64,000 nt of DNA from NCBI RefSeq assembly GCF_044324875.1, contig NZ_CP172185.1; one strand, 5' to 3'. Source of the stretch: Escherichia coli. Its GTDB lineage: Bacteria; Pseudomonadota; Gammaproteobacteria; Enterobacterales; Enterobacteriaceae. The first letter of the stretch is position 1; every line of letters begins with the position of its first letter. A program made the position numbers. This document shows, piece after piece, positions 1 through 9,000 of the stretch.

Positions 1-3000
1 TCGGAAACCATTCACTTTTAAGGCTGCGAAAGACTCTTTCCATCGGCGAATTATCCAGGCAATTCCCTCTGCGTCTCATACTTTGCATTACCCCATAACG
101 CCAGAGTAACTTTCTGTATTTATTGCTTTTATACTGAACACCCAGATCTGAATGAAACAGCTGGTGGCCATCACGCGGTCGCGTTTCCCGTGCATTACGC
201 AAAGCCCTACACACCAACTCAGCATCAGCGGTTAATGAGAGGGCTGAACCGATAATCGTAAGCGACTCGTCAGAACCGTATTGATATTTACTGAGAGCTC
301 AGATCAACTTTCCAGGGCAACAGATCGCGTACCCGGTTTGCCGGCCAGTCCTGGATATGTTCAATGACGTAACGCAGCCACTTTTCTGGCTCCACATTGT
401 TCAGACGGCATGTGCCGATCAGCGAGTACAACACCGCCGCATGTTCACCACCGCTGTCGGAACCCGCGAACATCCAGTTTTTCCGGCCTACGGCCACTCC
501 CCGTAAGGCGTTCTCTGCGATGTTGTTGTCGATTTCCACCCAGCCATTACTGCAGTACACGTTCAGTGCATCCCACTGTTTCAGCAGGTATGCGAACGCT
601 TTTGCTGCGTATTCCGCTCTATTCGATCACGGATTGGCATCGAAGTCCGATCAGCGATTCGCATCCATTCGATCAACCGGGAACTTAACTTTTTCTACCG
701 CTTTTTAACGCGTTTTTTCGCTGCTTTCCACTACCGGGGGATTTTTCCTCAGTGACTCTCCCTGAAGGACCACTCGGTGTGAGTTATGTACCAGTCTGTC
801 CAGGATGGCATCTGCTGTTGTTGGGTTCTCCATCAGACCATGCCATTTATCTACCGGGAACTGGCTTACCACTATCGTGCTGCTTTGTCCGTAACGATCC
901 TCTATGAGCTCCAGAAGGTCATTACACTGGGCGTTACTTAACTGTTCCAGCCCCAGATCGTCCAGGATTAGAACCTGTATTTTTTGCAACTGTTTCAGAT
1001 ATTTCAGCCAGCTGCCATCAACACGTCCCTGAGCCAGTTGTTCCAGTAATCGCCCGGTTCTACAGTACCGGACGCTGTGTTTCTGTCGACATGCCTGTTC
1101 GCCCAGCGCATTGGCTATCCAGCTCTTGCCACATCCTGTCGGACCGGTTATCAGCAGGTTTTTCCTGTGGGTTATGTAGTGGCCGTTCAGCAGTTCTCTC
1201 ATCTGTTCAGCCCGCAGACCTCTTGAGGCCGGATAGCGCAGCCCTTCCGGTGTTGCCTGGTATTTCAGGCCGGCATTTTTTCTCAACCGTGCCACACGGC
1301 TGTTTTCCCTGCTCAGAAGCTCGTCATCAACCAGCAGCGTCAGCCTTTCCTCGAACGACAGTTCGTCGTAGGTCTGAGGCGTTTCCCGCTGCCGTATCAG
1401 GCTCCCGGCCATCGCCGGGAGTTTCAGTTGGGTCAGTTTGTTTAACAGGTTATCACTCATACTGTTGTTCCTTCTGTCAGTGGTAGTAGCCCGGACCACG
1501 CAGGTTTTCATGCTCTGAAGCATATGCCGGATGTTGTTCGCCCTGGCGGGATAATGGAAGCTCCAGGTTCTCCCGATGGTGACGCAGCAGATTGTCGATA
1601 AAGCGTCTGTCAGGGGCGTTATAGTGCAGGGCAACGTAACAGGCCTTTTCCAGCCGTTCCGGGCCGTATTTTTTCTGAAGTGCCAGCAGCCCCAGAACTG
1701 CACGATAAGCCAGTTCCGGATGGGGTTTTGCCTTCAGCATGGATTCAACCACCCGGCCTGTGGACGGGCCCGTACGTTTTCCCTGCTCGATCAGGCGTTC
1801 CGGTGTCCATGTCCCGTGCTGCCGGTGGCGCTCTGGCATGTGAAGCGGATTGGTTGTGTGTTTATATTCATGTGTGCTGCGCGGATGTTGCGCCACACAC
1901 TGCCCCTTGTGCCAGAGCTGTACCACCGACTGCCCCGCCTTCAGTGACAGACGCTGACCGACCAGTTCGTGTGGAACGGAGTACCAGTGACGGGCATATT
2001 CAACGTGGTAGTCAGGGCCAACCTTCACAGCTTTGTATTCCGTGTATTCATAAGGTGCCAGAGGCAGCGGAGAGAGTGCTGGCGCATCCAGTATGCGGAA
2101 GCGTTCTGCACGGGTTTGATTGCCGTACCCCTTCATTGGCCGGTTATTCATGTCTGTCAGTAACTCCCTAAGGCGCGCATTCAGCGCCCTGAGCGTGTGG
2201 AAGGTTTCATTACGGATGCGGGCAAGAAGCCATCGTTCAACGATGAGGACGCCGTTTTCTGCTTTTGGTTTATCTTTAGGTTTGCGTGGTCGGGCCGGGA
2301 TGATAACCGTGCCATAGTGCTCAGCCAGTGCCTGATAACTGTCGTTGATGACAGGCTCATATCGATCGGCCTTTTTCACTGCGCTTCTGAGGTTATCGGG
2401 GATGAGCAGCTTCGGTACGCCGCCCAGGAAGGTCAGGCAACGGCTGTGGGCATTTAACCATGACATCATGTCCTGACCTTCGCACGCTTCAACGTAGGTA
2501 TAGTTGGACGCCCCCATTACGGCCACGAAGATTGCCACGCGGCGTATCTCACCGGTGTCCGGATTAATAACAGGAACCGTAGGACCACAGAAGTCGATAA
2601 AAAGCTTTTCGCCGGCACGATGCTCCTGGCGCATGGAGAGACGTCGCGTTTTTTTCCACTCCCGGTAGCAACGGCAGAAGTGCGAGTATCCCATCGCTTT
2701 GTTACCCGCCTGTGCCTTGTATTCCATCCACAACAGTTGCCGCGTCACACCTGGTTTTCTCATTTCCGTATCGAAGTACAACATGTCAGGCATTACAAGC
2801 TCTGATGCAAAGGTGTCTTTGGGCGGAAAAATGAGTTTCTCCAGCGTGTCATGGGATATATCAGCAGGTAATGGCCATGACAGAGAAGAGGCTTTGAAGC
2901 GGGCAAGAACCTCAAAAACGGTTGAGGCGCTGATGTGTAACGTCAGTCCGATACAACGGTTAGTCAGCTTCTTGTCGAACTTGAGCTGAAGGATCTTAAA

Positions 3001-6000: not shown

Positions 6001-9000
6001 ATAAATGACAAAGAACCCGCACTGGCCACTTTGCTTTCAGCTGTGTGATTAGCGCGACAGTTTCCCCGGGGATTTCGCTCATCAGCACGGCAGCCTGCTT
6101 TAGTATTTCTTTTTCCATCTCAGGGCGCTTTATCTGCGCTTTAAGCTGCTTAATTTAGCGTTGTTCAGGAGTAATAGCATTACCAGCGGGCTCAATACCC
6201 TGAAGTTCCTGCTTATACAACCGTATCTATTTACGCAAATGGTCAGGGTTGAGCTCGAGTGCCAGCGCGACTTCTCTGACATCACGCTGGTATTTAACCA
6301 CCTGTTCGATAGCTTCAAGCTTGAACTCCGGGGAAAAGGTACGTTTAGTCCGACGAGTTTTGATCATGCATCACCTCATTTTCACTTTTTAACATTAACA
6401 GTGAAAATGAGGTGTCCTGAATTACCGATCCACTACACAGAGAGTGACCAAAGGATAACGTGTCCTGAGTTTCCCTATTATAGAGAACTGTTCAGGGAGG
6501 CTGACATCAAGAGTGCAGTAGCCTTTTTAATATTTCATTCTCCATTTCAATGCGTTGTAGCTTTTTCCTCAGCTCACGTATTTCGATTTGTTCTGGTGTC
6601 ATCGGAGAGGCTTTTAGTGTTTTGCCCTGACGCTCATCACGCAGTTGTTTGACCCATCTTGTCATTGTGGAAAGGCCGATATCCATAGCTTTGGCGGCAT
6701 CTGCCACCGTATAGTTCTGGTCAACAACCAGTTGGGCGGATTAGCGTTTAAACTCTGCGCTAAAATTTCTTTTTTTCATTAGGGCACCAGTCTTGTTCTG
6801 AGGTGAGCATATCACCTCTGTTCAGGTGACCAAATTCAGTGTGCCATTTCAGTCTGTAATGCGCTGTGTGAAAAAGCTCACTGACAGTCTGAGTATTTGT
6901 CTGCAAAGGATGGAAGCCCGTCGAGGGTTCCTGAAAACCACTGGTGCGCTGGCGAATAAGCTGACAAGAATCATCTGGCGTGTTTTGAGCGATAGTATTG
7001 ATTTTAATATGCAGAAGGCCGTTGTGATGAATTAAAGAAAAACAGTAAGTTATAGAAAATATTTTTAACTGAGTTTACATTCACTGATGAGATAACGGCT
7101 ACCGCCCCTGTAACAGTCTGAAGTTGACCTGGGTAATCAAATACCGGTGTAGTGATTAGGAAACAGGGCCCGGATAACATCATGGCGCAGGTCATTGAAC
7201 CTACTAACGACGCCGGATATATGGTCGCAAACCGCATCGAACCAGTACTTGCCTCACCCGGGACGTCCATATATGCTCAACAAAAGAGAGCGTTCAGAAT
7301 TCTAGCCTCACATCATACCTGAAACCGCGTCCCGACCATAGATGATTTTATCGCCGGTTTTTTATGACAATTGTTATATTTCCGTAACAATCTTTCCGTA
7401 GACTCACGTGCATAAAAATGATTCCCCTTGAAATCGATTTTTTGAAAGGAAACCGCAATGGGCAGACCGTTAAAAACTTTATTCAAACGTGAGCATAGTG
7501 AAGAAATCAGTAACCCGAGCGATAACCGCGCGTTTTCGCAGGTGGCGGAAGTCTATTTGTCACGCCGCCGTCTGTTACAGGCAGGCACGGTCGCCGGTGC
7601 CGCGGCAGCGTTCCCATTTCTGCTGAAACAGGAAAACGCGCTGGCGAAAGTGGTCTCCAAAGCAAGCGGTAACCTCGGCAAAGCGACGACGCTCGGTTTC
7701 ACCAGCCTGCCGGTTTCCACGGAAGATACCGTTATCGTGCCGGAAGGATACATCGCGAAGCCCTTCTACAAATGGGGCGACGCCACCGGGATTGCCGGAA
7801 ATCTGCCGGTTTTTAAAACCGACGGTAGCAACACCACGGAAGAACAGGCGGCGCAGGCCGGGATGCACCACGACGGCATGGCGTGGTTTAGCCTGCCGCA
7901 GGGCGGGAACAGCTCCGATCACGGCCTGCTTGCCATAAACCATGAATACATCGATAACGGTCTACTGTTTAAAGATGGCGATGCCAACTGGAGCGCCGAT
8001 AAAGCTCTTAAAGGCCAGAACGCGATGGGCGTGTCGGTCATTGAAGTAAAAAAAGTGCCCCTGGGCTGGGAAGTGGTGCGCCCGTCATCGTTCGCACGCC
8101 GCATCACCGTTAACACGCCGATGAAAATCACCGGTCCGGCGCTGCATAACCCACTGATGCAAACAGTTGACGATCCGAAAGGCGAAATCATTCTCGGCAC
8201 CATGCAGAACTGTGCCAACGGATTTACGCCGTGGGGCACCTATCTGACGTGTGAAGAGAACTGGTCCGATATTTTCGTAAAAAAAGCAGAGATGAACCCG
8301 CTGGAAAAACGTTACGGTATCAGCGGGAGCGACGACTCTTACCGCTGGAACGAAGTGGATAAAAGGTTCAGCGTCGACGCCACGCCGAACGAGCCGAACC
8401 GCTTCGGCTGGGTGGTGGAAATCGATCCATACGATCCGCATTCAGTGCCGCGCAAGCACACCGCGCTTGGTCGCATCAAACACGAAGGCGCAGCGGTGAC
8501 AATTGCCCCGGATAACCGCGTTGTGGTCTATATGGGCGATGACCAGAAATTCGAATACATATATAAATTTGTCTCGGAAGGAAAATTCAACCCGCAGGAT
8601 CGCAAAGCCAACATGCACCTGCTGGAAAAAGGCACTCTGTACGTGGCGAAATTTAACGACGACGGCAAAGGCGAGTGGCTACCGCTGGTGTTCGGACAAA
8701 ATGGGCTCGACGCCAGTAAAGGGTTTGAAAACCAGGGCGACCTGTTGATTAAAACCCGTCTGGCGGCAGACGCCGTGGGGGCCACTAAAATGGACCGCCC
8801 GGAGTGGATTGCGGTCGATCCATATCACGCCGGCAGCGTTTACTGCACGCTCACCAACAACAGCGATCGCGGTAAGGAAGGAAAAGCGCCAGTGGATGCG
8901 GCCAACCCGCGCGCCAAAAACGTTTACGGCCACATCATTCACTGGCTGGAGCATAACGGTGACCCGACCGCGCTGCAGTTTGCCTGGGATATTCTTGTGA

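Follow-up and report, generated by a model that had tools for sequence, protein, structure and literature searches.

How a stack of insertion sequences (IS) lying within one another was built, in what order its members arrived and whether it has been disturbed since are the questions raised by one end of a 64,000-nt stretch of an Escherichia coli genome (contig NZ_CP172185.1; the whole stretch analyzed is referred to as the window, and its positions carry the prefix w). In the nest (w1–6851), ISSso4 lies within ISCro1, which lies within a dead IS3-family element that in turn cuts off an IS911 fragment, and all of these elements are carried on the minus strand. The setting is the edge of a genomic island, with an S6-peptidase autotransporter gene on one side and phoX on the other. 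The flanking DNA is 99% identical to that of strain LH50-c and only 92–93% identical to that of most other relatives. No database record was found to cover at least 80% of w1–7100 or of w6853–31000, and the window flanks are not present in the ISSso4-rich genomes GCA_027278235.1 and CP087294.1. Adjoining the nest on the plus strand (w6852–7035) is what may be the 3' part of a transposase gene of the IS110 family, an assignment that is tentative: its NCBIfam IS110 match (E = 2.8e-4, 20 bits) falls far under the cut-off of 140, and no Pfam match was found.

The innermost element

The innermost layer is a complete ISSso4 of the IS21 family (2639 bp, w606–3244), with istB at 705–1460 and istA at 1477–3012. 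It is flanked by TTTTGC at w600–605 (codons 417–418 of the interrupted tnpC gene, minus strand) and again at w3245–3250, and the initial annotation, which had described a tnpC split by an IS21-family element between these repeats, was exact to the base. The ends (TGCGTATTCC.../...CCATTTTGCA) have the TG...CA termini of the IS21 type (TGCGTATT... and ...TTTTGCA), and four to five GATGCCAAAnnnTGATCG repeats at w3116–3225 face inverted copies at w618–668. Both gene products score above the NCBIfam cut-offs (transpos_IS21, 285 bits; IS21_help_AAA for IstB, 258 bits), and IstA and IstB are identical to the products of a copy annotated as ISSso4 by PGAP in another genome (L002).

The element ends of ISSso4 and ISCro1 were set independently of the flanking repeats, using copies at other sites. 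Given these ends, flanks would match by chance with a probability of 4^-6 = 2.4e-4 for a 6-mer and 4^-8 = 1.5e-5 for an 8-mer. Target duplications in the IS21 family are short, 4–8 bp. Across 28 distinct sites, of which 26 lie outside the window, ISSso4 always had the same length (2639 bp) and identical termini, and the 22 sites with a duplication showed one of 6 bp (13 sites), 5 bp (five) or 7 bp (four). Since the other six sites lack one (four of these form two reciprocal flank-exchange pairs), the intact duplication seen here is informative. The full-length ISSso4 is also 100% identical to two neighboring copies in the window (w29134–31772 and w62793–64000), and the element appears to be currently active and expanding in the source genome.

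The middle element

ISCro1, an IS66-family element originally described from Citrobacter rodentium ICC168, where it is an expanded IS (PMC3072379), forms the middle layer. Its tnpC-distal end (w258–605, minus strand) comprises the terminal repeat GTAAGCGACTCG... and tnpC codons 419–523 (w288–605); the remainder (w3251–5601, minus strand) carries tnpC codons 1–418 (3251–4504), tnpB (4524–4871), tnpA (4871–5548) and the terminal repeat that ends ...GGTTAC at w5601. The ends are thus GTAAGCG.../...GGTTAC, and GTAAGCGACTCG and GTAACCGGCTCA pair in inverted orientation as imperfect repeats. The target-site duplication CGATAATC occupies w250–257 and w5602–5609, as first described, and profile matches agree with the assignment of an IS3-family orfB split by an IS66-family element.

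Without ISSso4, the element at w258–5601 measures 2699 bp (5344 - 2639 - 6 = 2699), the length found at each of eight other ISCro1 loci, where the duplication is 8 bp (seven loci) or 9 bp (one). The excised sequence shows 99.96–100% identity to the copy in L002, named as ISCro1 family by PGAP, and w258–605 matches ISCro1 in that genome at 100%. All three NCBIfam IS66 matches exceed their cut-offs (TnpA, 296 bits; TnpB, 129 bits; transposase, 478 bits). ISSso4 splits tnpC exactly after codon 418, within the catalytic domain (DDE_Tnp_IS66, residues 186–472), so this copy of ISCro1 has no transposase of its own and is non-autonomous.

Sequential in-silico excision, the check proposed at the outset, restores both interrupted genes. 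Removal of w606–3250 gives a 523-aa TnpC with a strong match to Pfam DDE_Tnp_IS66 (E = 2.5e-103) and with zf-IS66 and IS66_C domains also present, and removal of w258–5609 gives a continuous IS3-family orfB. The restored OrfB scores 249 bits against NCBIfam transpos_IS3 (cut-off 160) and matches Pfam rve (E = 1e-21) over a domain that spans the split.

The IS3-family remnant and the IS911 fragment

The interrupted IS3-family remnant consists of the 3' part of orfB (w1–257, minus strand), which joins w5610 onward in frame once ISCro1 is excised, and a 5' part (w5610–6437, minus strand) with the 5' region of orfB and orfA from an ATG at 6367; its left inverted repeat TGTAGTGGATCGGTAATTCAGGACACC begins at w6437. 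Two in-frame stops in orfA, TAG (6229–6227) and TAA (6157–6155), had not been noted by the initial annotation, and the element is dead. The match of orfA to the IS3 profile is weak, OrfB shares only about 48% identity with the OrfB proteins of IS911 and ISEc31, and the PGAP label is 'IS3 family'. The element runs past the window start and in relatives ends about 168 nt to the left of w1; as reconstructed, it is about 1253 bp long. Its inverted repeats (TGTAGTGGATCGG...CAGGACACC / TGTAGTTGAGCAC...CAGGACTCC), the right one placed in and taken from the relative L023, agree at roughly 18 of 27 positions. The flanks read CTG at one end and ACTG at the other, the far end being that of relatives and lying outside the window, and they form no clean duplication.

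Next to the remnant lie the first 414 nt of a truncated IS911-family element (w6438–6851, minus strand), comprising orfA and the left inverted repeat, whose outer end is w6851. The fragment matches a complete IS911-family copy in another genome (L024) at 389 of 416 positions (94%). Its orfA reads MKKRNFSAEFKR*, and codon 13 is indeed a nonsense codon (TAA at w6743–6741, GAA in the functional copy); the A6G frameshift run (about w6524–6528) is also short by one A. This fragment had been described as lying alongside the nest. It is present as described, but it is not a mere neighbor, since the IS3-family element cuts IS911 at nt 414, which gives the fragment the look of an outer, fourth layer. 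Past the far end of the IS3-family element, close relatives have the 3' flank of the S6-peptidase gene and no continuation of IS911, and hence DNA is missing from the outermost layer, which has no clean duplication. The CTG/ACTG flank match in relatives, where the far end can be seen, is ambiguous as a sign that the IS3-family element entered IS911.

Empty sites and the order of insertion

Both inner insertions have natural empty counterparts. Two genomes (L001 and L002) carry ISCro1 uninterrupted, with one TTTTGC. At the orthologous locus in 41 genomes, w215–257 is joined to w5610 onward with a single CGATAATC; among the matches listed for these genomes identity is 100%, and it is 99.6% in L023. 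No uninterrupted IS3 remnant was found at this locus in the genomes compared, each of which has some IS66-family insertion. Among 5,426 complete genomes of E. coli, none has the IS3/ISCro1 junction; the ISCro1/ISSso4 junction is likewise missing there and among 72,556 plasmids.

The remnant is common to relatives at the locus, and its junction with ISCro1 is absent from all of those genomes, so ISCro1 is the later of the two. ISSso4 would be the last and a recent arrival, given its two identical copies in the window, the undamaged ISCro1 obtained upon excision, and the absence of the junction from genomes and plasmids. Comparison between genomes therefore gives good support to an order in which the IS3 remnant came first, ISCro1 second and ISSso4 last. 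The initial annotation had derived this order from the preserved repeats; the order stands, but on the comparative evidence, as the repeats alone do not give it. It had also held that no insertion was followed by rearrangement, and this is true of the two inner junction pairs, neither inner element having recombined with another copy since insertion, but not of the outer layer, where the distal DNA of IS911 is gone.

The nest was very probably built by successive simple transpositions, of the IS3-family element, ISCro1 and ISSso4, into DNA that was already dead. The IS3-family element may have entered an IS911 copy, the distal part of which was lost later, and would then have decayed and gained its two orfA stops. 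ISCro1 then entered the rve-domain region of orfB, a step visible in the 8-bp duplication CGATAATC, and ISSso4, which encodes the IstA transposase and the IstB helper ATPase, entered the DDE_Tnp_IS66 domain of tnpC, with duplication of TTTTGC. This last insertion, too, can be read from its junctions, and the comparisons above suggest its timing.

Alternative histories

Intact nested repeats alone do not fix the order, because an ISCro1 that already carried ISSso4 could have jumped into the IS3 remnant as a single piece of 5344 bp, with TnpC supplied in trans, in which case the ISSso4 event would be older than the ISCro1 event. Such a unit is structurally mobilisable, its ISCro1 ends and 8-bp duplication being intact, and IS66-family elements at w55005–57338 could provide the proteins; ISSso4 is also found at or near the equivalent site in other IS66-family tnpC genes, so composites of this kind do arise. 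The nesting by itself is compatible with such a composite having formed elsewhere in the source genome, of which the window covers 64 kb. However, no second copy of the junction was found in the 5,426 genomes or 72,556 plasmids, and the two neighboring, 100% identical ISSso4 copies point to very recent ISSso4 activity, so that we regard movement as a unit as improbable.

We give even less weight to an origin of the nest in another strain or replicon, followed by arrival through homologous recombination or island transfer, a history that would leave the local order of events correct. The island is mosaic, as its uneven similarity to LH50-c and to most other relatives indicates, but the collections searched hold no donor with these junctions, and the identical ISSso4 copies nearby suggest local activity. 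Three 100% identical ISSso4 copies within 64 kb can lead short-read assemblies astray, yet a misjoin would not give a perfect 6-bp duplication of typical length around a full-length ISSso4, nor restore an intact, in-frame tnpC upon excision, and misplacement of these repeats by the assembler is very hard to credit.

Possible insertion hot spots

Whether the nest reflects real insertion hot spots, for ISSso4 in tnpC and for IS66-family elements in the IS3 orfB, instead of neutral accumulation is doubtful, and we consider it rather unlikely. ISSso4 may prefer some 80 bp of the tnpC genes of IS66-family elements (codons ~392–420). In pAST19_1, a 99.8% identical ISSso4 lies in the same orientation 1 nt off the homologous position of a ~68% identical tnpC, and two more IS66-family genes carry ISSso4 at about codons 392 and 394; these cases came via BLAST extension into similar flanks, a biased route. 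IS66-family elements, in turn, may prefer one spot in this IS3 orfB: ISEc8 in LH50-c duplicated w242–249, which directly adjoins the ISCro1 duplication at w250–257.

Several candidates for target choice were rejected. The 13 aligned 6-bp ISSso4 sites gave no strong consensus, only A/T at -4 and G/C at -1 standing out in this small sample. Specificity for IS66 was not seen in a flank-blind sample from three genomes (0 of 20 copies in IS66), and an ISCro1 site common to IS3-family genes is not borne out by an insertion (L035) in another IS3-family orfB, some codons downstream of the homologous site. When species-representative genomes were scanned with one end of ISSso4, only four loci came up, the other end being fragmentary in all of them, and the parts of the ISSso4 literature consulted merely list its presence, with no statement on target choice found there.

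The target in ISCro1 (TTTTGC|CGTAT; candidate hot-spot site TTTTGCCGTAT) also resembles abutted ISSso4 ends (...TTTTGCA / TGCGTAT...), and different strains have IS66-family insertions at abutting sites in the IS3 remnant. If hot spots exist, one IS family would be a preferential parasite of another; the possible hot spots would be of interest to IS specialists, but only once confirmed on an unbiased sample.

Comparison with known elements and IS nests

The nest has little significance beyond annotation. It illustrates how dead copies of IS elements on the borders of islands absorb more insertions, and it offers a clean, datable strain-typing marker, since neither inner junction occurs among the 5,426 complete genomes of E. 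coli. ISSso4 agrees with the named IS21-family element in its istA/istB genes, length, TG...CA ends, terminal motif repeats and 5–7-bp duplications; it has no structural difference, and only its host site, another IS instead of host DNA, sets it apart. The middle element has the tnpA-tnpB-tnpC order, 523-aa TnpC, 2699-bp length, GTAAGCG-type ends and 8-bp duplication of ISCro1, and differs from it in the tnpC broken after codon 418. The outer fragment resembles IS911 (IS3 family) in its left inverted repeat and in an orfA 94% identical over 414 nt, but it is cut at nt 414, has TAA at codon 13 and lacks one A of the A6G motif. The locus is a new instance, made of named elements, of a well-documented and ordinary phenomenon. 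IS nests are routinely catalogued, for example as 18 split IS copies across three Wolbachia genomes (PMC3205602), and the present one shares with them an IS split by another IS, retained duplications and an insertion-tolerant, cost-free region. It differs from them in its depth, with three clean layers and a damaged fourth, and in junctions not present among the E. coli genomes searched.

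Structure of the Nested Insertions

All features of the nest lie on the minus strand. The innermost element is a 2639 bp copy of ISSso4 (IS21 family) at w606-3244 (w, window coordinate), with ends TGCGTATTCC... and ...GCCATTTTGCA, and is flanked by TTTTGC on both sides (w600-605 and w3245-3250); with the element ends fixed, the chance of such a 6-mer match is 2.4e-4. At all 28 distinct ISSso4 sites compared (26 outside the window), the length is exactly 2639 bp and the termini (TG...CA) are identical, and a GATGCCAAAnnnTGATCG motif is repeated at both ends. The encoded IstA (511 aa) and IstB (251 aa) match the NCBIfam models for IS21 transposase and helper ATPase with scores above cut-off, and are identical to the proteins of a copy in a genome (L002) where IstB is named 'ISSso4 family' by PGAP. 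The element is intact and appears active. Three copies in the window (w606-3244, w29134-31772 and w62793-64000, the last truncated where the window stops) show 100% identity along their whole length, the second having a TTGTCT duplication, and this identity implies a recent burst of ISSso4 in the source genome. About 2 kb from the second copy, a plus-strand ORF of 296 aa (w33673-34563) resembling IS3-family OrfB points to one more IS within the island.

The middle element, ISCro1 (IS66 family), lies between two copies of the 8-mer CGATAATC (w250-257 and w5602-5609; chance of a match 1.5e-5 with the element ends fixed), and has the ends GTAAGCGACTCG... and ...GAGCCGGTTAC. Its length at eight other loci is exactly 2699 bp, and the same value is obtained here (5344 - 2639 - 6 = 2699). 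The limits of both elements are thus defined independently of their flanking repeats. NCBIfam profiles assign its TnpA, TnpB and TnpC to the IS66 family, and identity to ISCro1 copies named by PGAP is 99.96-100%. Since its tnpC is split by ISSso4, this copy is now non-autonomous. Elsewhere in the window, the w55005-58273 region holds an apparently intact ISEc8-like IS66-family element (tnpC of 512 aa, tnpB, tnpA), beside which is a 452 bp ISCro1-like end fragment (w57822-58273; 91.7% identity to ISCro1).

In silico removal of w606-3250 gave a tnpC of 1572 nt (523 aa), split exactly after codon 418, with TTTTGC forming codons 417-418 and the break falling within the DDE_Tnp_IS66 domain (residues 186-472). 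Removal of w258-5609 joined ...DLYSRRIIG in a single frame to the downstream part of orfB, within its rve domain. Natural empty sites exist for both insertions: a single TTTTGC in the intact ISCro1 of E. coli F1022 (L001) and of L002, and a single CGATAATC where this IS3 remnant occupies the orthologous position on the chromosome. In 41 genomes, w215-257 is joined straight to w5610 onwards, with 100% identity among those listed; the same join in E. coli LH50-c has 99.6% identity. The initial annotation had described an IS3-family orfB split by an IS66-family element, and an IS66-family tnpC split by an IS21-family element; matching repeats, restored host ORFs and empty sites in other E. coli genomes confirm both.

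Outer Layers

The restored OrfB of the outer element scores 249 bits against transpos_IS3 and contains the Pfam rve domain, but shares only ~48% identity with OrfB of IS911 or ISEc31, and PGAP gives the element no name. With two stops in its orfA (TAG, w6229-6227; TAA, w6157-6155), it is already dead, a point that the initial annotation did not mention. The adjoining IS911 fragment (w6438-6851) aligns at 94% identity with the initial 414 nt of a full-length IS911-family copy, and one A is missing from its A6G frameshift run. Because the IS3 left inverted repeat (TGTAGTGGATCGG...) begins at w6437, abutting IS911 nt 414, the fragment was probably truncated by the IS3-family element rather than simply lying alongside as first described, which gives the nest an apparent depth of four layers, counting IS911. 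The right inverted repeat of the IS3 element is positioned 168 nt left of w1 in close relatives; past it comes the 3' flanking DNA of an S6-peptidase gene, in which no IS911 similarity was found. The IS3 element flanks are CTG and ACTG (the far end taken from close relatives), and the IS3-in-IS911 layer is not clean. A short plus-strand ORF (w6852-7035, ending ...ALANKLTRIIWRVL...) adjoins the IS911 end and resembles the C-terminus of IS110-family transposases with an E-value of only 2.8e-4; it may be an IS110-family 3' fragment, and a fifth IS remnant.

Order of Insertion

Duplications are missing at 6/28 ISSso4 sites, so the intact duplications of the nest are informative. Four of the six form two reciprocal flank-exchange pairs (L014/L017 in GCA_027278235.1 and L026/L027 in CP087294.1, with flanks AATGAC/CCTGTG and ACCAGA/TTTACG), which indicate inversion by recombination between inverted ISSso4 copies, and served as the control for the appearance of a lost duplication. 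The intact duplications show simple insertion without later IS-IS recombination. The absence of rearrangement initially claimed for every level is limited to the two inner layers, because the outer layer is not clean.

The duplications were also held to give the order of insertion, but by themselves they do not, since a composite could move as one unit. A succession starting with the IS3 remnant, followed by ISCro1 and finally ISSso4, is nevertheless supported by three independent lines of sequence comparison. The IS3 remnant and its IS911 neighbor are common to relatives at this locus, and the window's IS3/ISCro1 junction occurs in 0/5,426 complete E. coli genomes. The three ISSso4 copies in the window are identical, and ISCro1 shows no decay after ISSso4 excision when compared with other ISCro1 copies. 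Lastly, the exact ISCro1/ISSso4 junction was not found in the 5,426 complete E. coli genomes or in 72,556 plasmids.

Related Insertions in Other Strains

LH50-c (L023), the closest relative over the flanking 20 kb (99%), carries ISEc8, a different IS66-family element, in the same IS3 remnant (L023 10009-12462). Its duplication, GCTGAACC, corresponds to w242-249 and directly abuts that of ISCro1 in the window, placing the two independent insertions 8 bp apart. In F1022-type strains the arrangement differs again: ISCro1 lies inside ISEc8 (L001 6103-11249). There, ISEc8 occupies the same remnant with mismatched flanks (w102 and w215), no duplication and a 112 bp deletion, while the ISCro1 within it has its own duplication, GAAAAATG.

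On plasmid pAST19_1 (L003 6046-8684), an ISSso4 99.8% identical to that of the window interrupts a different IS66-family tnpC (only ~68% nucleotide identity) in the same orientation, 1 nt off the homologous position, with a CCTTCC duplication. The same interruption apparently occurs in NC_007675.1, and in two more IS66-family tnpC genes (L011 and L012) ISSso4 lies ~25 codons upstream, near codons 392 and 394. These cases come from a search biased towards similar flanks, whereas 0/20 copies sampled regardless of flank were in IS66 elements, and those 20 revealed no strong target consensus; a hot spot is thus possible but unproven. The ISCro1 target (TTTTGC|CGTAT) resembles the abutted ISSso4 termini (...CATTTTGCA / TGCGTATTCC...; w598-610 and w3236-3256), and for this reason BLAST matches to intact tnpC run 11 nt into the ISSso4 end.

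Each layer is a typical insertion by a DDE transposase that cuts the target in a staggered manner; the resulting duplications measure 8 bp with IS66-family elements, and 5-7 bp, mostly 6, with ISSso4. The targets were already non-functional mobile DNA at the edge of the island, with the S6-peptidase gene on one side and phoX on the other, where an insertion is without cost. The nest first reported is real and was accurately described, and its interpretation was essentially right. It is an ordinary set of nested insertion sequences built from known elements, of a kind that is catalogued routinely (e.g., PMC3205602).
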